DNA of 32,000 nucleotides from Idiomarina loihiensis L2TR. GTDB lineage: Bacteria; Pseudomonadota; Gammaproteobacteria; Enterobacterales; Alteromonadaceae. Of the stretch, positions 11,425-29,867 are shown in pieces (within the stretch, counting starts at the first letter, position 1; every line of letters begins with the position of its first letter). Both the position numbers and the translations under genes were made by a program. The notes below the pieces were generated by a model, which made no database searches, was not told the origin of the DNA, and worked only from the letters and a program-made list of their open reading frames with translations. The stretch covers positions 1,710,001 to 1,742,000 of the forward strand of contig NC_006512.1 of the NCBI RefSeq assembly GCF_000008465.1, given 5' to 3'.

Positions 11425-12012
11425 ATGGAGTCAGAGCAGTTTATATTTGTGGCTAACAATTTAGCTCTGGATTTTGTAAACACTGAGGTTGGGGTCGGCG
11501 AGCAATATTCAGACAAACTTGAAAGCGCAGAAAACGTACTTGAATGGCTTCATGCCGCTAGCCTCATCAGCGCAAAGCAGCCTGAAGCTTTACCTAATTT
11601 GTTACCTCTGGCGAAAGAGCTTCGCGCTGAAATGAACCAGACAATAGCTCACGCTAAAAAAGGAATAGGTTATGAAACGAAGTGCGCCAACTCTATTCTG
11701 AAAAAGGGGTCACCCTACCCACAGATAGCCTGGCAGGAAAATGAGAAAAAGTTTGTCATTAACTACCACCACGCAACACTCACGGTCGAAGCACTTTTGC
11801 AGCCAGTAGCTCATGCGTTTCTTCATTTGCTAACTGAGTTGGATTTCAGTTTAGTTAAACAGTGCGAGGCAGATGATTGCGTACTGATGTTTCATGACCA
11901 AACCAAGTCTCACAGACGGCGGTGGTGCAGCATGGCATTGTGTGGAAATCGCATGAAAGCGGCTGCTCATAGAAAAAGAAACCGAAGCGAAAATAAAAAA
12001 CGCGAGTACTAG
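11425..12012 (+). CDS. CGNR zinc-finger (ABATE domain) putative regulator
   Basis: The C-terminal CEADDCVLMFHDQTKSHRRRWCSMALCGNRMKAAAHRKR contains the diagnostic RRWCSM..CGNR motif. Confidence 0.8.
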   Translation: MESEQFIFVANNLALDFVNTEVGVGEQYSDKLESAENVLEWLHAASLISAKQPEALPNLLPLAKELRAEMNQTIAHAKKGIGYETKCANSILKKGSPYPQIAWQENEKKFVINYHHATLTVEALLQPVAHAFLHLLTELDFSLVKQCEADDCVLMFHDQTKSHRRRWCSMALCGNRMKAAAHRKRNRSENKKREY

Positions 12013-12137
12013 TGACATTAGTATGGCACGAAATAAAATTCGCGCTTCAGTTTAGTTTGCTTAAAAATTAAGGTATCTAGGGGTACGGATTTCAATCCTT
12101 AGCCCTGGATACACAACAACCCTAAGTTGTTCGTTAA

Positions 12138-18043: not shown

Positions 18044-18604
18044 ATGAATAGCTTTGTGGTCATCGCAACATTTTTTACCGCATTAACAGCAGCCATTTCA
18101 TGCGCGGTAGCCTGGCGCCAGCATGCATGGAATAAAAGAAACTACTTAGCAAGTGTGAAACCCTATTTATCAGACTTCCTTGATGAAAAAACAAACCCGC
18201 TAATATTTTCCTACACGCTTACCAATAAAGGGTTGGGCCCTGCTTTAATTCAAAGCTTCGAGATGACTTGGGATGGAAAAGCCATAACGATGAAAGAGCT
18301 TCAATCCAAACTAGAGGAAAAGCTCGGTAAAAGATTCGGCGTACAAGTTGGTGAGTTTTCTGAACACTTTGCTATAGCAGCAAATGAGAGCTTTTTAGTA
18401 ATCAGTTTCTGGCAGTTAGAAGATGACAAAAATCTACAATTTTTGGTCTCGCCGGATAGCATAAAAGAAGTAAGACAAGATTTGCTCAAGTTCTGCCGCT
18501 TAAAAGTTAGCTATAAGTCTTTCCTATCAAATGAAGTACAAGTCTTTGAAACAACTTTGCTTGAAAGCCTGGCTGACGAAGTGAAGAAAAACAGTGCCGC
18601 ATAA
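18044..18604 (+). CDS. Hypothetical single-pass membrane protein (no recognisable domain)
   Basis: 186 aa. N-terminal hydrophobic helix (FVVIATFFTALTAAISCAVAW) followed by a soluble region. It lies 43 bp upstream of the helicase gene with no intervening hairpin. Translation signals are weak. Confidence 0.55.
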   Translation: MNSFVVIATFFTALTAAISCAVAWRQHAWNKRNYLASVKPYLSDFLDEKTNPLIFSYTLTNKGLGPALIQSFEMTWDGKAITMKELQSKLEEKLGKRFGVQVGEFSEHFAIAANESFLVISFWQLEDDKNLQFLVSPDSIKEVRQDLLKFCRLKVSYKSFLSNEVQVFETTLLESLADEVKKNSAA

Positions 18605-18647
18605 ATAATGTCAGTGCCGATCCATACATTTTTCATCACAACACGGA

Positions 18648-21386
18648 ATGTTTATGTTCTCACTAATAGTAAATGGCCAGGATAAAACCCGACAAATAGC
18701 TGATTGGAAAATATTTAAAGGTTCAGAGGGACAGTTCGTTCTTAAGTGCATCTTTCGCTCTGATAAAGCCTTCTTTCGTTCTCTAGAAGAATGTGAGATC
18801 ACTCCTACTGAAGAAGTCAAAGACAAGCTTCTTATAACAAAGAATGGCTCCAAAGTAAGTACTATCGAGAGTGCGTTAATCTACGCTAATAAATATGCCA
18901 TTGTTCACTACCCTGGCTCATCAGAGCCATATCTAATGAAGATGGACGCTATCGAATTTACTGATACGGCCAACATCAAAAACGGCACCGTCTTTAATTA
19001 TTTTACCTCAGTAACCAATGCTCGAATGAACCTAGCTCCCTCGGGAGAAGAGCGGGATATTGCCGAGAACATAGCTAAGCAACTAGAAAAAATAGAACCT
19101 TATCCAGAAACTGCTCTATTCTCTTATTGCACAGGAAAAAGTCAACAAAGGGCCAAGCCGAACGGTCTAGTATACCCGTTCGGAATTAACTTAAGTCAGC
19201 AACAAGCTGTCCAGCAGGCTTTTTGCTCTCAAGTCAGTATTATTGAGGGGCCGCCTGGTACAGGGAAAACACAAACAATACTAAATATTCTCGCTAATAT
19301 CGCTTTACGAGGGGAAAAGGCAGCCATTCTTTCCAATAACAATCCTGCAGTAGAGAACGTTTACGAAAAGTTAGAAAAAAGTAGTTTAGGTTACTTAGCT
19401 GCCAAATTAGGTAGTGTTCAGAATCGAAAAGACTTCTTCGCAAGTTTACCTATGAAGCCAAAGGAAAAACCTAACCAGGCTAAGCCACTTGAAGATATAA
19501 CAAGCCAAATACAACGACTAGAGCAGCTTCTCAGCGCTCAAAATGAAGCATCTAAGCTACGAAGCCAAATCAGTGAATTAAAAATCGAGCGCAAACGTTT
19601 GTTAGGTTGGCAGGACAAAAGTATTCATAAGCCGATAATGCAACCGAACAAATATAAGCTGTCTCCACAAAAAATAACGGACTTTATCGCTTACCTTACC
19701 GATATTTCTGAAAAGCGCATTACGCTATGGAATCGGCTCGAACTATGGCTACATTTCCGTATTCTCAGAACCAAACTCTTTAATACATGGGAGAAGCGAA
19801 AAAGCGTCATTCATGCGCTTCAGCTTCTTTATTACGACTACGCCTTACAAGAGAAAACAGCAGCATTAAAAACGCAAGAAGAAATACTTGAGCAGAGTAA
19901 CTTTAAGGTTTTGCTCGAAACAGTTACTAATTCCTCAATGGCGTACCTGAAAAGCTCACTATTTGATCAAGTATCATCCCATGAAGACTTTGATTCAGAA
20001 AATTACCGTCAAAATTTTCATCAATTTTTGCAGCGTTTTCCTATAATGGGTAGCAGTACTCATTCGATTATAAACTCTCTCGATCAAGGAACGATCCTAG
20101 ATTTTGCCATCATCGATGAAGCTTCTCAGCAAGATATTATTCCTGGGATACTAGCTTTAGGATGCGCGAGAAACGTGATCATTGTAGGTGACCGAAAACA
20201 GCTTCCACATATTCCTAATCAGACGGGAATACTACCGCCAAGTGACATGTATGACTGTGAAAAACACAGCTTGCTTGAATCTTTTACTCGAGTGTTCAGC
20301 GGATCCATTCCAATAACTTTGCTTAAAGAGCATTATCGGTGTCACCCTAAGATCATTCAGTTCTGTAACCAACAGTTCTATAATAATGAACTCATTCCAA
20401 TGAGGGACGACACCGCTAAAAATCCTCTGGAGCTTATCGTCACAGCTAAAGGCAATCACGCACGAGGTTACTCTAACAAAAGAGAGTTAGAATCACTCAT
20501 TAAAGTTCAGACTGAAAATGAAGGAGCGGGATGGGACGAAAGGAATAGTAAAGGGTTCATAGCACCATACAATGCACAAGTTAACCTATCTCGCTCTCAC
20601 TTACCGACAGACTTTGTTAGAAAGACAACGCATAAATTTCAAGGACGCGAGTGTGATGAGATTGTGTTTTCGACCGTCTTAGATAAAAAGCTAAGCAATC
20701 AAAGTGAACGTAAGATTACGTTCGTCGACAACCCTAACCTTGTCAACGTTGCCGTTTCTCGTGCTAAAGAGAAGTTTACTCTAGTCACTGGCGACAATGT
20801 TTTTACTGCTGGTAACAGCAGTATCGCCGCATTAGTTCGTTATATGGAGTATTACGGTGATCAATCAAGTATATATCACGCGCCTGTTATTTCTTCCTTC
20901 GATTTACTGTATGACGAGTACGATCGGTCACTAGAAAAGCTAAGAACAAAATTAAGACCTGAAGACTCACAGTACAAGTCAGAACAAATCGTTGCTCAAG
21001 AACTGCGTCAGTTGTTATCCGACGAAAAGTATAGAGAGTTTACGTTTCATGCTGAGGTTGCGCTCATCCAGTTAGTCTCTCCCAACTTAGAGGACCTGAC
21101 TCAAGCCGAGCTCACATTCATGAGGAATCTATCGAGATGTGACTTCGTTTTCTATTACAGAGTTGGCAAGCAACCATTAGCTGTTATTGAGGTTGATGGT
21201 GGACACCATAACACTCCGGAGCAAAAGCGCCGAGACGCGCTTAAAAATAGTATTTTAGAGAAAGCTGGACTCCCCCTACTTCGTTTGAATACAGATGAAG
21301 CCCATGTCTCTAGAAATATAAGCTCTTTTCTTGATACTTTAAGGCAAGCCTGTGATAAGCCGAACGATCTCGAACTCACCGGCTAA
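18648..21386 (+). CDS. Upf1/DNA2-like superfamily-1 helicase (AAA_11/AAA_12 type) with a C-terminal DUF2726/Vsr-like PD-(D/E)xK nuclease domain
   Basis: Walker A (IIEGPPGTGKTQT), Walker B (IIDEASQ), motif III (VGDRKQLP), HYRCHP, QGRECDEIVFS and motif VI (VNVAVSRAKEKF). The C-terminus CDFVFYY...LAVIEVDGGHHNTPEQKRRDALKNSILEKAGLPLLRL matches the DUF2726/DUF559 pattern as I recall it. The first ~190 aa have no recognisable domain. Confidence 0.85.
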   Translation: MFMFSLIVNGQDKTRQIADWKIFKGSEGQFVLKCIFRSDKAFFRSLEECEITPTEEVKDKLLITKNGSKVSTIESALIYANKYAIVHYPGSSEPYLMKMDAIEFTDTANIKNGTVFNYFTSVTNARMNLAPSGEERDIAENIAKQLEKIEPYPETALFSYCTGKSQQRAKPNGLVYPFGINLSQQQAVQQAFCSQVSIIEGPPGTGKTQTILNILANIALRGEKAAILSNNNPAVENVYEKLEKSSLGYLAAKLGSVQNRKDFFASLPMKPKEKPNQAKPLEDITSQIQRLEQLLSAQNEASKLRSQISELKIERKRLLGWQDKSIHKPIMQPNKYKLSPQKITDFIAYLTDISEKRITLWNRLELWLHFRILRTKLFNTWEKRKSVIHALQLLYYDYALQEKTAALKTQEEILEQSNFKVLLETVTNSSMAYLKSSLFDQVSSHEDFDSENYRQNFHQFLQRFPIMGSSTHSIINSLDQGTILDFAIIDEASQQDIIPGILALGCARNVIIVGDRKQLPHIPNQTGILPPSDMYDCEKHSLLESFTRVFSGSIPITLLKEHYRCHPKIIQFCNQQFYNNELIPMRDDTAKNPLELIVTAKGNHARGYSNKRELESLIKVQTENEGAGWDERNSKGFIAPYNAQVNLSRSHLPTDFVRKTTHKFQGRECDEIVFSTVLDKKLSNQSERKITFVDNPNLVNVAVSRAKEKFTLVTGDNVFTAGNSSIAALVRYMEYYGDQSSIYHAPVISSFDLLYDEYDRSLEKLRTKLRPEDSQYKSEQIVAQELRQLLSDEKYREFTFHAEVALIQLVSPNLEDLTQAELTFMRNLSRCDFVFYYRVGKQPLAVIEVDGGHHNTPEQKRRDALKNSILEKAGLPLLRLNTDEAHVSRNISSFLDTLRQACDKPNDLELTG

Positions 21387-21430: not shown

Positions 21431-21859
21431 ATGTCTAAAAGTTTAAATCCCGAAAAAGCGCTCATATGGCGGATTATCCACCGAGATAATCTCGAGTGGA
21501 TTCTTCAGCACGGGGTTTACGCTTCAAGCAGTGAATATAAGTCTGATGACTGGGTAAGTATAGGCAGTGAAGAGCTCATTGATAAGCGGTCGAAGAAAGA
21601 GGTCCCAATTGCGCCAGGAGGAATGCTAAGTGATTATGTTCCCTTCTATTTCACTCCTTTTTCGCCGATGCTTTACAACATAAAAACAGGGCGAGGTGGT
21701 GTAGTCCAACGCAACAATGATGAAATCATCATACTCGTTTCAAGTCTGTACGACGTTAATGAGGCTGGTTTAAACTACGTTTATACAGACAGCCATGCAT
21801 ACTCAGCACTAGCTAATTACTACTCCGATCTGAACAGCATTAGAACGATCGACTGGGAC
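21431..21859 (+). pseudogene. darT: darT 5' fragment (DUF4433 ssDNA thymidine ADP-ribosyltransferase toxin, codons 1-143), interrupted by an IS3-family element
   Basis: IWRIIHRDNLEWILQHG, PGGMLSDYVPFYFTPFSPMLY, LVSS and YTDSHAY line up with DarT motifs recalled from Thermus DarT. Genuine sequence ends at ...IDWD. The remaining track-ORF residues are read-through into the IS. Confidence 0.85.
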
Positions 21860-21917
21860 GGGTTCTACCCAGATTTTACGGACACATCCAAAACGAGGCA
21901 TAATATGCCCATAAGGA

Positions 21918-22211
21918 GTGTTCATGACCAAACGAAAAAAGTACAGCCCAGAGTTTAAACGTGAAGCCGTAGCGTTGACAAAACAGCCCGGTGTAAGTTG
22001 TCGCCAGGTGGCTATAGAAATCGGTATTAACCCCAATTTGCTCAGCCGTTGGCGGCGTGAAGCCGAGCCATCCTCTAAAGAAGCTTTCAAAGGCTCAGGT
22101 AACCCCCGCGACGAAGAAATGGCGCGGCTTAAACGCGAGAATGCCCGACTTAAAAAGGAACGGGATTTTTTGCGAGAAGCGGCAACGTTCTTCGCAAAAG
22201 AGTCGTCCTGA
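21918..22211 (+). CDS. IS3-family transposase OrfA (HTH)
   Basis: [18 protein letters not shown]...[27 protein letters not shown] is typical IS3 OrfA with a leucine zipper. The slippery heptamer T_TTT_TTG (22166-22172) is in the correct phase. AAAAAG at 22152-22157 is an alternative slip site. Confidence 0.9.
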
Positions 22212-22258
22212 GATATCAGGCGATAGAGCGTTGCCGCGATAAATTTCCGATACGCTTA

Positions 22259-23065
22259 ATGTGTCGATGCCTGCAAGTGTCACCCAGCGGATATTACGCC
22301 TGGGCAGTACGACCGGCCAGTGCCCGTGATGTGGAAAATCAGCGCATTCTGACCCGCATTAAGGAGATCCACGAGGACAGTGGTGGTGTCATTGGCGCAC
22401 CACGTATGCATGAAGATCTGTCTATTGAAGGTGAACGACTGAGTCTGAATCGGGTTGCCCGCTTAATGGCCGTCAATGGCGTTCAGGGCTGGCCTCGTAA
22501 GAAAGGACGAGGCCGAAAGCGACAGGCCGCTAGGCCCGAAGGTCTTAAAAATCATCTGGCACGTGACTTCACAGCGGCAGAGCCTGAAACTAAATGGGTC
22601 ACCGATATTACCGAGGTGACAACCACCGAAGGCAAGTTGTTTCTGTGCGTTGTGCTAGACTTGTACAGCAAGCTGATAGTGGGCTGGTCCATGCATCACC
22701 GTCAGGATCGGTACATGGTCATTCGCGCAGTGGAAATGGCCGTCTGGCAACGAACAAGTAGTCAGCCTGTGATTTTACATTCGGATCGCGGCGCTCAATT
22801 TACCAGCGGTGATTATCAGCGTGCTCTCAAATTTAATAACCTGATCAGCAGCATGAGCGCAGTCGGTCATTGCAGCGACAACGCTGCCTGTGAAGGATTT
22901 TTTGGGATACTGAAGCGTGAAAGAGTGAATTACCGCCGCTATCGAACAAGAGATGAAGCACGTTCAGACATCTTTGATTATATTGAACGGTTTCATAATC
23001 CAAGAATGCGTCGTAGACTGGCAAAACAAGATCAGCAGTTTAGTGCGATTTTAAACCGTCCGTAA
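22259..23065 (+). CDS. IS3-family transposase OrfB (DDE integrase core), expressed as an OrfAB fusion by -1 frameshift
   Basis: The frame is -1 relative to orfA and open from 22154 (…[31 protein letters not shown]). DDE region WVTDITEV..., [10 protein letters not shown] and [17 protein letters not shown]. Confidence 0.9.
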
Positions 23066-23081
23066 TAACGGGGTAGAACCC

Positions 23082-23297
23082 GACCTCATCCAACGGCGTG
23101 ACTTTAAACGTGACTTCAATGACTTAGGCAAGCTCGATAGATACCAGGCAGAGGCTTTAATCCACCGTCACTTCCCTATTACACTTTTAAAAGGTATTGT
23201 GTGTTATGACGAAAAAGTAAAACAATTTATCGAACAAAAAGTCGGTAACTACGGTCAAAATATAAAAGTCATAAACCGCCCAGATTGGTACTTTTGA
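23082..23297 (+). pseudogene. darT: darT 3' fragment (final 70 codons plus stop)
   Basis: After the duplicated GAC, the frame reads LIQRRDFKRDFNDLGKLDRYQAEALIHRHFPITLLKGIVCYDEK...INRPDWYF*. It contains the QAE(F/A)L catalytic-Glu motif and the terminal P.WY(Y/F). It is in frame with the 5' fragment once the IS and one GAC copy are removed. Confidence 0.85.
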
Positions 23298-24364
23298 TGC
23301 TCAATTATAAGACAGGCAATTTATTAGAATCTGAAGCTGAAGCCCTTGTTAATACCGTAAATACCGTCGGTGTTATGGGTAAAGGGATCGCTTTGATGTT
23401 TAAAGAAAGGTTTCCTGCAAATATGGAAGCCTATTCTCAGGCCTGTAAAGAGAATAAAGTGAAGACAGGCAAAATGTTCGTTACTCACACCAACGAACTG
23501 GTCAACCCTCAATGGATCGTGAACTTTCCGACAAAGCAACATTGGCGTGCCAAATCAAAAATAGAATGGATTGAAGAAGGGTTAAAAGATTTAAGAGCTT
23601 TCATTATTGATAATAACATTCGCTCAATTGCTATCCCTCCTCTAGGAGCAGGCAATGGTGGCTTAGACTGGGATAACGTTCTTCCCCTGATACAAAAGCA
23701 TCTGGGCGATATGACTGACATCGATATTCAAATTTATCAGCCTACGCAGCAGTACCAAAACGTCAGCAAACAATCTGGAGTTGAGCAACTAACAGCTGCT
23801 CGAGCAATGATTGCAGAGCTGATAAGACGTTACTGGGTATTAGGTAATGAATGTACCCTACTTGAGGTGCAAAAGCTTGCATGGTTCCTGCAACGAGCCA
23901 TACAGCAAGAAGGGAAAGAGAGCCCACTTAGACTGACCTTTCAGCCCAGAAATTACGGACCCTATGCCAGTGACTTAACGCACTTATTAAATCGATTAGA
24001 TGGCAGCTATTTACAGTCGGACAAGCGTATTCCCGACGCAAAAGCGACAGATGTGATTGCCTTTAATGATAATAAGCGGGAAACCGTTGCAGCTTTCCTA
24101 CAAGCCGAAGCAACTGAGTTTCAATATGCATTGGACAAAGCGACAGAAATTATTGAAGGGTTCGAATCTCCCTTTGGACTCGAGCTGCTCGCGACAGTTG
24201 ACTGGCTGATGACTGAGGGGAACGTAAATCCAGACGCGGATAGTGTAATAGAAGCATTAACCTATTGGCCTGCTGGTGCTAAATGGGCGCAGCGCAAACT
24301 AAATATGTTTGATAAAAAGGCCATCTCAATTGCTATCACCGCATTAATGAGAAAGCTGCACTAA
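23297..24364 (+). CDS. darG: DarG antitoxin (N-terminal macrodomain ADP-ribosylglycohydrolase plus C-terminal DarT-binding domain)
   Basis: The start is reset to the ATG at 23297, which overlaps the darT stop (TGATG). The macrodomain motifs are [34 protein letters not shown] and [15 protein letters not shown]. Confidence 0.85.
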
Positions 24365-24555: not shown

Positions 24556-24846
24556 ATGACAACGATTAGCCAGGACAGCATCAACAAAGCACTCTGGAAC
24601 GCTTGTGACACCTTTCGTGGTACAGTCAGTGCCGACACCTATAAAGACTTCATTCTGACCACTCTCTTCCTAAAATACATCTCGGATGTATGGCAGGACC
24701 ATTACGACCAATATGCAGAAGAGTATGGTGATGAGCCACAGTTCATCATTGAAATGATGAAAAACGAGCGCTTCGTGTTACCGCGTGATGCCGAACTAGG
24801 AGAGTGTAAAGGACAGGTTGGATCAGATGGCTGGACGGATTTTTAA
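24556..24846 (+). pseudogene. hsdM: Type I restriction-modification methyltransferase HsdM, N-terminal stub only
   Basis: LWNACDTFRGTVSADTYKDFILTTLFLKYISDVW...NERFVLPRDA is the HsdM_N domain. Recognisable sequence ends near 24790. No N6-methyltransferase catalytic domain, hsdS or hsdR follows. Confidence 0.75.
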
Positions 24847-24883
24847 TGGATAGGCTGAATAAATTTAAATAAGGTGTCGATTA

Positions 24884-25888
24884 ATGGCAAAGATCGGTCG
24901 CAATGAACCCTGCCCCTGCGGCAGCGGTAAAAAATATAAGCGATGTTGCATGAGTGGTGTTGGTAAACAACAAGCTGACTTTGTTGATAGCATCGAGCAG
25001 ATGTTGGCGATGAATCCTGATCTTTCGATGGACGAGCTGAATATTATCGCCGAGCACCAATCCAATAAAATTAATACCACACCTCACAAAGACTTCTGCG
25101 GCCTGGCTCCTGGGCAAGTTAATAACTGGCTTTATGCCCCTTTTCCCGAGTTAGAAGGCATCACGATAAATACGCCATCTGATTTAAGCACCAGTCCGGT
25201 AATGCGTTATTTAAAACTGATGCTGGAGACAGCATTAGCTAACGGTGGGCAGATTAAGGCGACCGCCAAGGGGAATCTCCCGGCGGCGCTAGTGAAAGAA
25301 GCCAGCGCATTTTTACCCGAATTTGCTGTTGCTCCATTCGAGCGGGCCATCAGCATTAGTGAATTTGCAGGCGCCAATGAAGACAAGTTTAACGCACTGC
25401 ATTACTGCCGTGTTCTTGCTAAAATCGCGGGGATTTTTAAGCTAAAAAGTAATAAGTTCCACGTCTCTGCCTGGGCTAAACACCAATACCAGCGAGCTGG
25501 CCTGGAATCGTTTTTCCCCATCATGCTAGAAACAGCCGTTTACAAATACAATTGGGGTTATTTTGACCTTTGGGAAAATGAAATTCCTTTACAGCACTTC
25601 TGGCTATTCATGCTGTGGCGACTTCAGCATCATAAGTCACACGAACGGTTGGTGGATGAGATGATTCAGGCATTTCCTGATTTGCTCAATGAACTCTACG
25701 AGGAAGAATACATGTCGGACAGAGACAAACTTGCCGTTTTGATTGAATCACGCTTTATTCATCGCTTTCTGCAATTCTTTGGATTTGTCATGGTTGACCC
25801 TAGGCGCGTTATTGATGGTAAACGAGTGGCGGCCCAGGTGACCTGTTTACGGTCAATGCACGAGACGTTTAACTTCAGGATTGAATAA
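24884..25888 (+). CDS. SEC-C motif (SecA C-terminal-type zinc-binding) protein of unknown function
   Basis: The N-terminal [18 protein letters not shown] is the SEC-C metal-binding motif. The remaining ~300 aa have no domain I recognise. AAGGTG ribosome-binding site 8 nt upstream. Confidence 0.7.
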
Positions 25889-25991
25889 AATTAGATTGTC
25901 GTTAACCGCCTACTGGTAAAGTAGGTTTGTGATTTGTTGAGATAGTCGATAATCTGAGAACCTTGGTGAGCGTAAGGATCAGAAGCCACAC

Positions 25992-26577
25992 ATGATTGAG
26001 ATAAAAGAAATTATCAGGCCCTTAGAGCAAGGCAGCACTCAGCCCTTTTTATGTGTCGCCGATGATGGCAAAAAATACGTTGTTAAAGGACAACGAGGAG
26101 GCACAAGACTCTCTCGGCGAAGATGATGCGTTTGCTTCCGAATTTATCGATGGTCTTCAAGAAGTCAACTATCAACTAATGATGAACTTTGGACAGGAAG
26201 TAGCTGCAAACTTATTTATATTCGATCTTTGGGTCCGTAACGGCGATCGTACTTTGTCAATGAAGGGCGGCAACCCAAATGTATTCTATCAACCTGCCGA
26301 GCAGCGCTTTTGGGCTTTAGATCATAACTTGGCATTTGATGATAGCTTCGAATTTTACGACTTTACTAAAGATCACCTCGGCAGAGACGCCTGGATACAA
26401 CAGCGGGATTTATTATCGCGACAACTTTATCAAGATCGCGCGAGTAACTGTCTTCGACAGCTTGATGAAATATTCTCGCTGGTACCAGATGAGTGGGATC
26501 TAACAGATGACTTTATGGAACAGATTCGGTTAACATTAGGTCTAATAAACCATGACAACTTCTGGGAGCGGATATAA
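25992..26577 (+). pseudogene. HipA-like kinase (the type that partners DUF3037), frameshifted and probably internally deleted
   Basis: Frame 0 gives MIEIKEIIRPLEQGSTQPFLCVADDGKKYVVKGQRGGTRL and then stops at 26124-26126. The rest (…AFASEFIDG…FDLWVRNGDRT…GNPNVFY…ALDHNLAF…) continues in the +1 frame to 26577. The combined length of about 195 aa is shorter than I expect for the family. Confidence 0.6.
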
Positions 26578-27380
26578 TGAATACGTTATGCATGTATGCC
26601 ACTGTGCGTTTTATGCCGTTCGCTGAAACCCAAGAGTTTGCTAATGTTGGTGTGGTCGTTTGTGCCCCCGATACCGGTAAAATTAAGTTTAAACTTGCAC
26701 GTAAGCGTTTTGGTCGTGTTAATCAATTCTTTGAAGACCTCGATGGCAAGTTGTTCGGCAGCACATTACAACTTTTAGAGGCCGAACTTAATCGCCTAAA
26801 AGAATTCGCCATAGACAAGCCAGGAAAAGCTACCGCTGCGTTATTTCAGGAGCTGACCCGGCACCGAGAAGGCGTGATCTCTTTTGGGGGAGTTAGCACT
26901 GCAGTAGTTAATAACATTGACGATAAGCTCATCGAATTGTACGAGCATTATGTCGAAAGAAGCTTCCTTAGCGAAAAGTATCGCGAGAGCATAATAGAAC
27001 AAAACATTCGTCAACTGTTGAAACGTGAAAATGTAAAAGACTTTAAGGCTCAAGTGCTCGAAACAAAGCTCAGTGAATTCAAGCTGCCATTCGTTAAAAA
27101 AAGTGCTAACAGTACAAAAGTCATTCGGCCTCTTGCGTTTGAACAAAAAACGCCATTAGCAGCCTACGAACATGCAGCTCAGTGGATAGATAGACTCACA
27201 CGCCTACAACATGAACAGATAGTGTTGCCTCACAACATGATGCTGGCAGTAGAAAAGCCAACAGACAAAGGGTTTGAAGAAGCGTACTTTGAAGCCGTTA
27301 ACATCGCTTCTCAAAGAGAGATAATTGTCGCTAACGCCAATGATTCTCCAGAAATTTTGAGTTTTGCTAATAACACGTGA
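26577..27380 (+). CDS. DUF3037 domain protein
   Basis: The N-terminal YATVRFMPFAETQEFANVGVVVCAP matches the DUF3037 signature (Y.v.r..P....EF.NvGvv). The ATG overlaps the upstream stop (TAATG). Confidence 0.7.
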   Translation: MNTLCMYATVRFMPFAETQEFANVGVVVCAPDTGKIKFKLARKRFGRVNQFFEDLDGKLFGSTLQLLEAELNRLKEFAIDKPGKATAALFQELTRHREGVISFGGVSTAVVNNIDDKLIELYEHYVERSFLSEKYRESIIEQNIRQLLKRENVKDFKAQVLETKLSEFKLPFVKKSANSTKVIRPLAFEQKTPLAAYEHAAQWIDRLTRLQHEQIVLPHNMMLAVEKPTDKGFEEAYFEAVNIASQREIIVANANDSPEILSFANNT

Positions 27381-27435: not shown

Positions 27436-27456
27436 ATAGGGGCTATAAGCCCCTAT
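27436..27456 (-). terminator. Hairpin terminator, canonical on the minus strand, that may also stop the plus-strand DUF3037 transcript
   Basis: ATAGGGGCT-ata-AGCCCCTAT forms a 9-bp stem. The minus strand continues TTTTTTGATTTG. There is no T tract on the plus side. Confidence 0.55.
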
Positions 27457-27624
27457 AGCTCGAGTTCAGCAAAGGCCCTATCAGCATCCTCTTGAGTAAT
27501 GCCAATATAGCGCAGCGCCAGCAACCTCAGATGGCCGAACCATAATCAGCAGTTGCCATTTAATTAATGGTCTTGTAACCATACTAAGGCGAGCATTACC
27601 TTCGAAAAGATATCTAACTACAGA

Positions 27625-28422
27625 CTAATTTAGCTGCCAGTAAAACATCCGAGCTTCTTTATTAAGCGCTGTTACGGTAATAGCTTCGTCACAAGCTTTG
27701 CCAGCGGCGCCGTAGCAAACGTGCAACGGTAACAAGTGTTCTTCGCGCGGATGACAAAACTCGGCAAATGGTGCTTGTTGCCAATGGCTGAGCTTATCGG
27801 CGCGCTCTTCTTCATTTAGCGTTTCACTGCTGCATACTTGCTCTAACCAGTTTTGAAATTCTGCGTTTTTACTATCTGCTTTTGCGTCTTCCGGGGAGAA
27901 AAATGCCTTCATATTGTGAAATGAAAAACCGGATCCCAAAATTAACAGGTTGTCATAATCTAGGTTAGCCAGGGCTTTTCCCAATTTCATGTGAGCATTA
28001 GCATCAAGCGTATTCATCAAAGACAGCTGCACGCAGGGAATATCGGCTTGCGGAAACATAATTTTAAGAGGCACAAAAAGTCCGTGGTCAAAACCACGCT
28101 CCGACTCCCCCACCGACTCGATACCCGCCGCCGTTATTGCGCCCAGTAGTTCCTTAGCCAGATCCGGCTCGCCAGGTGCCGGATAAGTGATTTGGTAAGA
28201 TTCCGGTGGAAAGCCGTAATAATCATAAATGAGTTCCGGTTTCTCACCCGTGGTTACATGCGGTATATCAGTTTCCCAATGAGCGCTAACGACAAGAATG
28301 GCATCGGGTTTAGGCATCCGTGCGGCCACACCTTGAAGCACTTTATTCAGGCTCTCATGAGTTTTGTCGCCTAATAGTGGCATAGGGCCGCCACCGTGGG
28401 CGATATATAATGCCTGTCTCAT
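27625..28422 (-). CDS. ygiD: Class III extradiol dioxygenase, 4,5-DOPA dioxygenase (YgiD) family
   Basis: 265 aa. ALYIAHGGGPMPLL, ILVVSAHWE, GFDHGLFVPL and LILGSGFSFHN are typical of LigB/YgiD-type enzymes. Confidence 0.8.
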   Translation of the reverse strand: MRQALYIAHGGGPMPLLGDKTHESLNKVLQGVAARMPKPDAILVVSAHWETDIPHVTTGEKPELIYDYYGFPPESYQITYPAPGEPDLAKELLGAITAAGIESVGESERGFDHGLFVPLKIMFPQADIPCVQLSLMNTLDANAHMKLGKALANLDYDNLLILGSGFSFHNMKAFFSPEDAKADSKNAEFQNWLEQVCSSETLNEEERADKLSHWQQAPFAEFCHPREEHLLPLHVCYGAAGKACDEAITVTALNKEARMFYWQLN

Positions 28423-28557: not shown

Positions 28558-28649
28558 TTCTATATTTATCAAATATATGTGCCATTAATTGACAACCACT
28601 TTAAATTTCAGCATTGTTAACGCAACAACTATTAACTTTAAAAGTTTAT

Positions 28650-29867
28650 ATGTCAAGCTTTGAGCGTTTGGAAGAAATAAAAACTGAAAAATACTATCGA
28701 AAACTACAAAAAAAAGACGTAGACGGTCGTATAGCAAATAATAATCGATATCTAATAAACCAAGAGGATCAGTTAGGTTTTGATAGTATAGATGGTGAAA
28801 TCAACTTAAAATTTAGAGAACGTCGATTTGTAGCAGAGATAATTATCACAGCAAAAGAATTGACCAGTGACTCTCTATCAGTTGTCTCAAAGCTTGCAGG
28901 TGAACCTCAATACAAAAAATACGAAGTTAATGAATCAAAAGCAGGAATATTTTGCGATATTTTTTCTTCTTGCGATGAAATACAAATTCGCCTAAAAGAC
29001 GAAACTCTCATTGAGTCCATAACAATTTATTACTACGAAGAATCTGATTTCTCAGGTATTTTATCTGATATTAGTGATATCCGAGAGGTTATAAGCGAAA
29101 TTAATAATAAAAAAGAAAAACACAATGAGTTAATAAAAGACAATGACATATTACTACGTCAAATTGAAGAATTAGAAACTCACGTGGCCGAAGTCCGTGG
29201 AGAGGTTAAAACTTTTGAAATAGAGCGTGAAAGAGCCGAAGAGCGGTTCAATAAGCTCTTAGATCAAACCCAAACTAAAAATGAAATTATTCAAAAACAG
29301 AATGCAGAGTTATCCAGGTTAGACAAGTCAGTCAAAGGCAAGAATCTTGAGCTTAAAAGTTTAAATCGCGAAATCGGTAACTATAACGACACAGTTAAAG
29401 GCTATAGAAGTCATAGCAGAAATATAAACTATTTTTATTACTTTGCTATTATTGTATGTTTGATTTTGCTTTGGTGTTCAGTAGATGTGATTATTGAACA
29501 AGCCCTGTCATTTTCTGGTAAAGAATTTGATGATCTCGATGACGCGTTGAACTTCTTAGTAGCAAAATTCCCGGTCACTGCCGCCATGGTAACTGTCTCG
29601 TTTGTTTTGCTAAGTCTTGCGAAGTATTGCATCAACATTATAAATAATATTAATAACCAATCCTTAGAGCTAACTAAGTTTTCGGTGCTTGCAAAGCATG
29701 TAGTAGATCAAACGAATGATGAAGCTAGTAAAGATTTTTCAGTAGAAGAAATTAACAAACAAAAAGCGATGGTCATCGGTGAGTTAATGGCTGAAAAATG
29801 GAAGTCAGAATTTTCATTGCAAACAAGCAAAAAAGCTCAAAAAGACGATAGCAGTCCTGAAACTTAG
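28650..29867 (+). CDS. Hypothetical coiled-coil membrane protein
   Basis: The start is set at the ATG at 28650 (the track uses TTG at 28614). There is an N-terminal soluble region, then a long heptad-like charged segment (KKEKHNELIKDNDILLRQIEELETHVAEVRGEVKTFEIERERAEERFNKLLDQ...). Two hydrophobic helices follow (YFYYFAIIVCLILLWCSVDVII and FPVTAAMVTVSFVLLSLAKYCI). The gene is very AT-rich. Confidence 0.6.
   Translation: MSSFERLEEIKTEKYYRKLQKKDVDGRIANNNRYLINQEDQLGFDSIDGEINLKFRERRFVAEIIITAKELTSDSLSVVSKLAGEPQYKKYEVNESKAGIFCDIFSSCDEIQIRLKDETLIESITIYYYEESDFSGILSDISDIREVISEINNKKEKHNELIKDNDILLRQIEELETHVAEVRGEVKTFEIERERAEERFNKLLDQTQTKNEIIQKQNAELSRLDKSVKGKNLELKSLNREIGNYNDTVKGYRSHSRNINYFYYFAIIVCLILLWCSVDVIIEQALSFSGKEFDDLDDALNFLVAKFPVTAAMVTVSFVLLSLAKYCINIINNINNQSLELTKFSVLAKHVVDQTNDEASKDFSVEEINKQKAMVIGELMAEKWKSEFSLQTSKKAQKDDSSPET

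Follow-up and report, generated by a model that had tools for sequence, protein, structure and literature searches.

Genes of the locus and identity of the kinase–DUF3037 pair

The region 24884–27380 of the window (the whole stretch of 32,000 nt analysed here, positions 1,710,001 to 1,742,000 of NC_006512.1, Idiomarina loihiensis L2TR) carries three genes, all on the + strand. These are a gene for a protein with a SEC-C zinc motif, a broken gene for a HipA-like kinase, and an intact gene for a DUF3037 protein. The last two (25992–27380) very probably represent a degenerate copy of HipAD, a two-gene toxin–antitoxin anti-phage system also called DS-6 or PDC-M66, and they are referred to below as hipA and hipD.

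The SEC-C gene (24884–25888) encodes a protein of 334 aa with the Pfam SEC-C motif near its N-terminus (residues 6–23). Its stop codon is separated from the kinase start by a gap of 103 bp, within which a terminator-like hairpin with a T-rich tail can be drawn (25908–25936, + strand; a 7 bp stem followed by TTGTGATTTG), although it is only weakly indicated, by a consensus scan. Operator-like inverted repeats were sought in the upstream region of the kinase gene, and none were found there. The kinase itself is represented by two remnants in different frames. The 5′ remnant (25992–26126) consists of 44 codons that end in a stop at 26124–26126, and matches positions 1–34 of the Pfam HipA_2 profile (PF20613, E = 1e-10). 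The 3′ remnant (26092–26577) lies in the +1 frame, within a second open reading frame (ORF) of 174 codons (26053–26577) that matches profile positions 64–240 (E = 6e-41). The following gene, hipD (26577–27380), encodes 267 aa with a match to DUF3037 (PF11236, E = 1.2e-25), and its ATG overlaps the TAA of the kinase gene (TAATG, 26575–26579). Direct reading of the sequence shows that hipD has its own Shine–Dalgarno-like motif (GGGAG, 8 nt 5′ of the ATG), and that no ribosome-binding site is evident for the 3′ kinase remnant. The ORF coordinates, the N-terminal SEC-C motif, the 103 bp gap and the TAATG overlap had all been given in an initial annotation of this DNA, and the ORF listing, direct reading and Pfam searches agree with them.

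Both proteins of the pair are recognised by the PADLOC models for PDC-M66. The kinase fragment matches PDC-M66A (E = 1.5e-9, compared with 4.6e-14 for P0001, an intact orthologue described in the next section), and the DUF3037 protein matches PDC-M66B over its full length (E = 4.4e-21). Among the PHROG families, the kinase belongs with phrog_3162 (E = 1e-49) and the DUF3037 protein with phrog_5137 (E = 8e-56). A tblastn search of a phage collection identified Escherichia phage PhiR5_1 (PV340545.1), where genes annotated as HipA toxin and HipD antitoxin are found right after cI. P0001 is 37% identical to the PhiR5_1 toxin over its full length (XSB41283.1, E = 2e-54), and the DUF3037 protein of the window shares 30% identity with the PhiR5_1 antitoxin over 232 aa (XSB41282.1, E = 3e-38).

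The PhiR5_1 and window pairs are alike in gene order, Pfam architecture and overlapping junction. As in HipAD/DS-6 generally, a HipA_2 kinase of about 235–250 aa is followed by an overlapping DUF3037 gene for about 267–275 aa, in a mobile-element or defence context. They differ in that the window kinase gene has been destroyed by a 119 bp deletion, and in that the phage pair occupies the cI-adjacent moron position of a lambdoid prophage, whereas the window pair is part of an island in a marine Idiomarina.

The initial annotation had proposed that DUF3037 genes are linked to this kinase family, and a survey of loci bears this out. A DUF3037 gene is immediately downstream of the HipA_2 gene in every one of 32 loci, comprising 24/24 viral contigs and eight others (L011, L101, L102, L104–106, L187 and L216); near-identical copies of the window locus were left out of this count. 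Both features of HipAD, a kinase of the HipA_2 family and an overlapping downstream DUF3037 partner, are present in the window.

Published work likewise reports a strong association of DUF3037 with HipA-like proteins, and gives PDC-M66 as the PADLOC name for the pair (PMC12548924). Deletion of the HipA-like gene from the Retron-Sda1 operon abolishes defence, deletion of the DUF3037 gene is toxic, and the HipA-like/DUF3037 pair found beside Retron-Sda1 defends without the retron (PMC12548924). The DS-6 system of DefensePredictor has been validated, and loses defence when DS-6A carries a catalytic mutation; a HipAB-like toxin–antitoxin mechanism, possibly acting by abortive infection, was proposed for it (PMC13092281). 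The same study renamed DS-6 as HipAD, citing Brenes & Laub 2025. The initial annotation viewed the pair as uncharacterised, with no function assigned, a statement that is out of date because the pair corresponds to PDC-M66 and to the validated DS-6. Its view of the two genes as a conserved, overlapping pair of toxin–antitoxin style in a defence context is supported by both the locus survey and the literature.

The Retron-Sda1 pair shares its two-gene organisation with the window pair, as well as the match of both window proteins to PDC-M66 models, but no retron reverse transcriptase is present among the called genes near the window pair, and the window kinase is predicted to be non-functional. 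Canonical HipBA (E. coli, S. oneidensis) and HipBST resemble the pair in having a toxin with a HipA or PI3/4-kinase-like fold, and in their toxin–antitoxin logic. However, the window kinase has no Couple_hipA domain, and neither an upstream helix-turn-helix (HTH) antitoxin of the HipB type nor a HipS is found. The antitoxin of HipBA is the upstream HipB, while that of the window pair (DUF3037) is downstream and unrelated. The pair is not a canonical HipBA system: only HipA_2 matches the kinase, and the gene upstream of it is the SEC-C gene and not an HTH gene. A sequence search of PDB with the kinase gave no match to any chain.

By extension from the published members, defence by intact copies would depend on the kinase, and loss of the DUF3037 gene would be toxic. 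The toxin would be a Ser/Thr-type kinase of the HipA_2 family, about 235 aa in length, and the DUF3037 protein, encoded directly downstream with a 1–4 bp overlap, would neutralise it. Phage infection would then free the kinase to phosphorylate a target, perhaps a component of translation by analogy with HipA, and so arrest the cell or the phage, possibly as a form of abortive infection.

Deletion in the kinase gene and fate of the antitoxin gene

An intact orthologue of the kinase (P0001, 234 aa) was found by protein search in Idiomarina sp. PL1-037, where the SEC-C, kinase and DUF3037 genes occur in the same order as in the window (locus L011); the intact pair spans 1804258–1805765 of CP139873.1. 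Alignment of the two DNA sequences shows one clean deletion of 119 bp in the window copy, with its junction at 26089/26090 (+ strand), where AAAGG is joined to ACAACGAGG. The missing segment is flanked in PL1-037 by an imperfect 7 bp repeat (ACAGCGA...ACAACGA), which makes a microhomology-mediated deletion likely. The loss amounts to about 38–40 codons, approximately residues 36–73 of the 234-aa kinase, together with a frameshift. The kinase had been described initially as split, and it is indeed broken, with its two parts in different frames, but the break is not in the interval 26105–26125 where it had been placed, and the shortfall of roughly 50 residues was an overestimate.

The first 35 codons of the 5′ remnant are authentic and include that for K32, an invariant residue in the VVKG motif; nine out-of-frame codons and the stop follow. 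The 3′ remnant is 99% identical in nucleotide sequence to the PL1-037 orthologue and retains the catalytic-loop motifs FDLWVRNGDR and DHNLAF, but the N-lobe is gone. An AlphaFold2 (AF2) model of P0001 (predicted local distance difference test score, pLDDT, 86.3) shows a protein-kinase-like fold, and the nearest folds in PDB are PI4KII-alpha, CtkA, RIO kinase and S. oneidensis HipA. The elements deleted from the window copy correspond in this model to a helix at 38–54 (containing E44, alpha-C-like), a strand at 61–66 and a helix at 68–71, so that the missing stretch is predicted to be the core of the kinase N-lobe. Three residues that are invariant in the family alignment (E44, L56 and P57) fall within it. 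With the N-lobe core removed and the frame shifted, the kinase is most likely dead and the system unable to defend. The window locus would then be a HipAD member by descent, pseudogenised in function, with no intact and catalytically competent kinase and with only the antitoxin gene intact.

If the split were an artefact of sequencing or assembly, the gene would be intact in the organism. The general frequency of frameshift errors is all that speaks for this, and a deletion of 119 bp is not a homopolymer slip. Exact copies of the DUF3037 and SEC-C proteins occur in two NCBI assemblies (GCA_000401175.1, sequence CP005964.1, and GCA_003353435.1) and in numerous metagenome or SRA contigs. The region 24884–27380 is 99.96–100% identical in ten loci, two of them in these assemblies and eight in independent metagenome/SRA contigs. 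These copies represent a near-clonal lineage, and their sources label the proteins as Idiomarina. As the deletion is shared by ten independent assemblies, the lesion is real, in line with the initial annotation, and there is virtually no chance that it arose in the data.

The kinase gene has been inactivated a second time in this genus. The locus of Idiomarina tyrosinivorans (L187 4881–7256, PIQH01000001.1) has an IS3-family transposase gene that abuts a kinase remnant of 150 aa, which is followed by an intact DUF3037 gene (267 aa); the pair adjoins type I restriction-modification genes, and no SEC-C gene is present there. There are thus two independent inactivations of the kinase in Idiomarina, one by the 119 bp deletion and the other by a truncation associated with an insertion sequence (IS). 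The DarTG genes, which lie in the same island as the window pair, have followed the same course. DarG is intact (23285–24364; NCBIfam antitoxin_DarG, E = 1e-133), but an IS3-family element (about 21918–23065, with ORFs at 21918–22211 and 22259–23065) divides DarT into an N-terminal part (21431–21958) and a C-terminal part (about 23088–23297), so this is a second pair in the island with a dead toxin and an intact antitoxin.

Loss of the toxin first, with the antitoxin kept, is the expected route of toxin–antitoxin decay, and the locus offers a clean natural example of it, seen twice for the kinase in Idiomarina and once for DarT of the same island, the antitoxin being retained each time. Alternatively, the orphan hipD may be kept because it is useful, either in anti-addiction or immunity against HipA kinases that arrive with phages or mobile elements, or in regulation by DNA binding. 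Its full length in the face of two independent kinase inactivations would fit such a role, as would its own Shine–Dalgarno-like motif, its low ratio of nonsynonymous to synonymous divergence (dN/dS), and the AlphaFold3 predictions that suggest DNA binding by DS-6B (PMC13092281). However, toxin-first decay is the default for toxin–antitoxin pairs and can proceed without selection on the antitoxin, the divergence that underlies the dN/dS value mostly predates the lesions, and the translational coupling of hipD to the upstream ORF has been lost because the kinase frame is broken. Retention for a function of its own is therefore considered unlikely.

Several observations weigh against describing the pair simply as a decayed HipAD. 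The catalytic-loop motifs survive in the remnant ORF of 174 codons, for which a residual, non-kinase role is conceivable. The dN/dS of hipD (0.10–0.15) mostly reflects divergence before the deletion, and is no proof of current selection on the orphan antitoxin. DS-6B has been reported to carry DUF1829 in addition to DUF3037 (PMC13092281), but Pfam searches found no DUF1829 match in either the window DUF3037 protein or PhiR5_1 HipD. A degenerate HipAD system nevertheless remains much the most probable identity of the pair. As HipAD is already a validated defence system and the window copy appears dead, the locus has little consequence by itself, and it is PL1-037 that supplies an intact orthologue for work in a marine host.

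The SEC-C gene and its family

The SEC-C protein consists of an N-terminal zinc motif and an uncharacterised domain of about 300 aa. The motif has the CxC...C(C/H) pattern of YecA and other proteins with SEC-C metal-binding domains, and scores 39 bits against the Pfam SEC-C model; there is no other Pfam match. A family profile recovers the metal-binding-domain peptides of SecA and YchJ from PDB, where sequence searches found nothing beyond the zinc motif. Because the NCBIfam matches are confined to the motif, the protein has no relationship to E. coli YecA (UPF0149) outside it. An AF2 model (pLDDT 71.5) has no significant fold match in PDB, the best being to winged-helix proteins at an uninformative E of about 0.1.

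In the initial annotation the SEC-C, kinase and DUF3037 genes were grouped as one string, which would make them a single three-component sensor/effector or addiction module. All three genes have the same orientation, the block common to the window and PL1-037 contains exactly these three genes between otherwise different flanks, and SEC-C family genes elsewhere adjoin Hip-type kinases of several clades. If the SEC-C gene were a component, then it would be expected to accompany the pair in other genomes, but this is not the case. No gene of the family occurs within 5 kb of the pair in any of 24 viral loci, nor in any of the 30 loci outside the window/PL1-037 arrangement (the 24 viral loci and six others), and it does not appear in the gene maps of L101, L102, L104–106, L187 and PhiR5_1. 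The family is also absent from the viral contig collection. Conversely, five other Idiomarina loci carry the SEC-C gene without the pair. The terminator-like hairpin between the SEC-C and kinase genes argues against a common module, and published HipAD/DS-6 defence requires two genes only (PMC12548924, PMC13092281).

Sequence divergence points in the same direction. Between the window and PL1-037, the synonymous divergence (dS) of the SEC-C gene is 0.38, with a dN/dS of 0.14, whereas dS for the 3′ part of the kinase gene and hipD is 0.03–0.05, about tenfold lower. Mismatches become abruptly sparser where the SEC-C gene ends, near 25880. Given the discordant dS values and this breakpoint, the SEC-C gene and the pair have had different recombination histories. 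A three-component module is accordingly very unlikely, and the SEC-C gene is a neighbour of the HipAD pair rather than a component.

The five Idiomarina loci that carry the SEC-C gene alone share only 24785–25870 of the window, i.e., a ygjP remnant and the SEC-C gene, and their downstream sequences are unrelated to the kinase. The SEC-C gene of these loci comes after hsdR and a YgjP-like gene. In the window, it is preceded by an hsdM stub of 96 aa (24556–24846, HsdM_N only), and 24785–24853 corresponds to the final 69 nt of a ygjP-like gene, fused to the 5′ end of hsdM. Because related Idiomarina have hsdR and ygjP before SEC-C, a deletion appears to have joined the 5′ part of hsdM to the 3′ end of ygjP, so that little remains of a type I restriction-modification operon. 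The SEC-C gene of the window would once have followed this operon, as a gene separate from HipAD. The hsdM stub and DarTG had both been listed as neighbours in the initial annotation, and Pfam and NCBIfam searches confirmed the stub and DarG.

The wider SEC-C family (more than 879 homologues) extends across Vibrio, Shewanella, Moritella and Marinomonas at about 57% identity. In marine Gammaproteobacteria it is found in hipB-hipA-SEC-C operons, often with an additional gene for a 371-aa protein, and the third-gene product is 52–59% identical to the window SEC-C protein. The SEC-C gene of these operons is downstream of a canonical HipA, whereas that of the window precedes a HipA_2 kinase gene, with 103 bp and a hairpin in between, and has a separate evolutionary history. 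Gene maps of Marinomonas mediterranea and Shewanella livingstonensis show HTH_31 (HipB), HipA (Couple_hipA and HipA_C) and SEC-C genes in succession, with gaps of 11–15 bp. In S. livingstonensis, an operon that also includes the 371-aa gene is located at 546021–549761 of CP034015.1. Examples of operons of this type, with or without the 371-aa protein, include L094 4354–7005, L096 4392–8132, L110, L112–L114 and L121–L123, among others.

When genome contigs were scanned with the untrimmed SEC-C alignment, matches to the generic CGSGKKYK zinc motif predominated, and only one true homologue emerged. Trimming of the motif before scanning metagenome contigs gave 80 SEC-C loci. Of those with at least 600 bp of upstream sequence, 34/67 have HipA directly upstream of SEC-C, there being in addition one apparent in-frame fusion, and HipB is at position −2 in 27 loci. 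The 371-aa protein is encoded directly downstream of SEC-C in 23/66 loci; it has no Pfam or PADLOC match, and the L096 copy has no PHROG match either. The apparent fusion (L115 3717–5903) is a single open frame that joins HipA to a SEC-C family protein without the zinc motif; it occurs on one metagenome contig, probably arose by deletion, and is given little weight.

At least five Hip-adjacent arrangements of the SEC-C gene can be distinguished: HipB-HipA(I)-SEC-C, with or without the 371-aa protein; HTH-HipA(II)-SEC-C; SEC-C-HipB-HipA(III); SEC-C-HTH-HipA(II); and SEC-C-HipA_2-HipD in Idiomarina. In the main arrangement the pairwise identities of HipA and SEC-C are correlated (r = 0.79, 30 loci). 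The C-terminal domain of about 300 aa belongs to a broad, uncharacterised superfamily (964 representatives at E ≤ 1e-3). Ten of the longer representatives were scanned (e.g., P0166, P0190, P0193, P0253 and P0278), in which the domain is fused to PRiA4_ORF3, TPR or DUF7309/DUF6930; no kinase fusion was present among 150 representatives.

These associations raise the question of whether the SEC-C family protein is a functional accessory of Hip-type kinase toxin–antitoxin systems in general. If so, an unnoticed third (perhaps fourth) component would modulate Hip kinases; its zinc motif is of the SecA type, and the protein might tether the kinases to ribosomes. Several features weigh against such a functional link. 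All members of the main HipA clade come from one lineage (at least 73% identity), genes for YicC and RNase PH recur beside SEC-C loci, and a 40%-identical SEC-C homologue stands alone between gmk and yicC. The SEC-C gene may instead be a semi-conserved chromosomal gene beside a yicC integration hotspot where hip cassettes land, and this is the main rival to an accessory role. We regard a general accessory function as doubtful. Literature searches for a link between SEC-C or YecA and HipA found no relevant paper. A large protein family that is usually embedded in hipBA operons would, if functional there, add a component to a much-studied kinase system of persistence and defence.

Flanking genes of the island

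The window and L011 cease to be homologous beyond 27531 (L011 11623), which marks the right edge of the shared block. In L011, a gene for a tyrosine recombinase of 186 aa follows directly after hipD on the minus strand (11546–12106); a 78 nt remnant of its 3′ end is found in the window (27454–27531, − strand), identified by homology to L011. A GC-rich hairpin with a 9 bp stem (27436–27456) lies just before this remnant. The same small integrase, together with RadC, LytTR and AlpA genes, flanks the HipA_2/DUF3037 pairs of L101 and L102. The intact HipAD pair of PL1-037 adjoins a Hachiman-like pair (HamA and a DEAD helicase), a SIR2_2 protein gene and two integrase genes (L011 12381–19108), a typical defence island.

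Directly upstream of DarT in the window (18044–21386) is a gene for a 186-aa protein with no Pfam match, followed by one for a superfamily 1 (SF1) helicase of 912 aa (AAA_11/AAA_12) with a C-terminal DUF2726/DUF559 nuclease-like domain, and these could be another defence gene pair. To the right of the shared block, between a LigB-family dioxygenase gene (27625–28422, minus strand) and transposase fragments, is a gene for a 417-aa protein (28614–29867) with a coiled-coil middle and a hydrophobic C-terminal half, which shows weak matches to SMC/Rad50-like coiled coils and to DUF5453.

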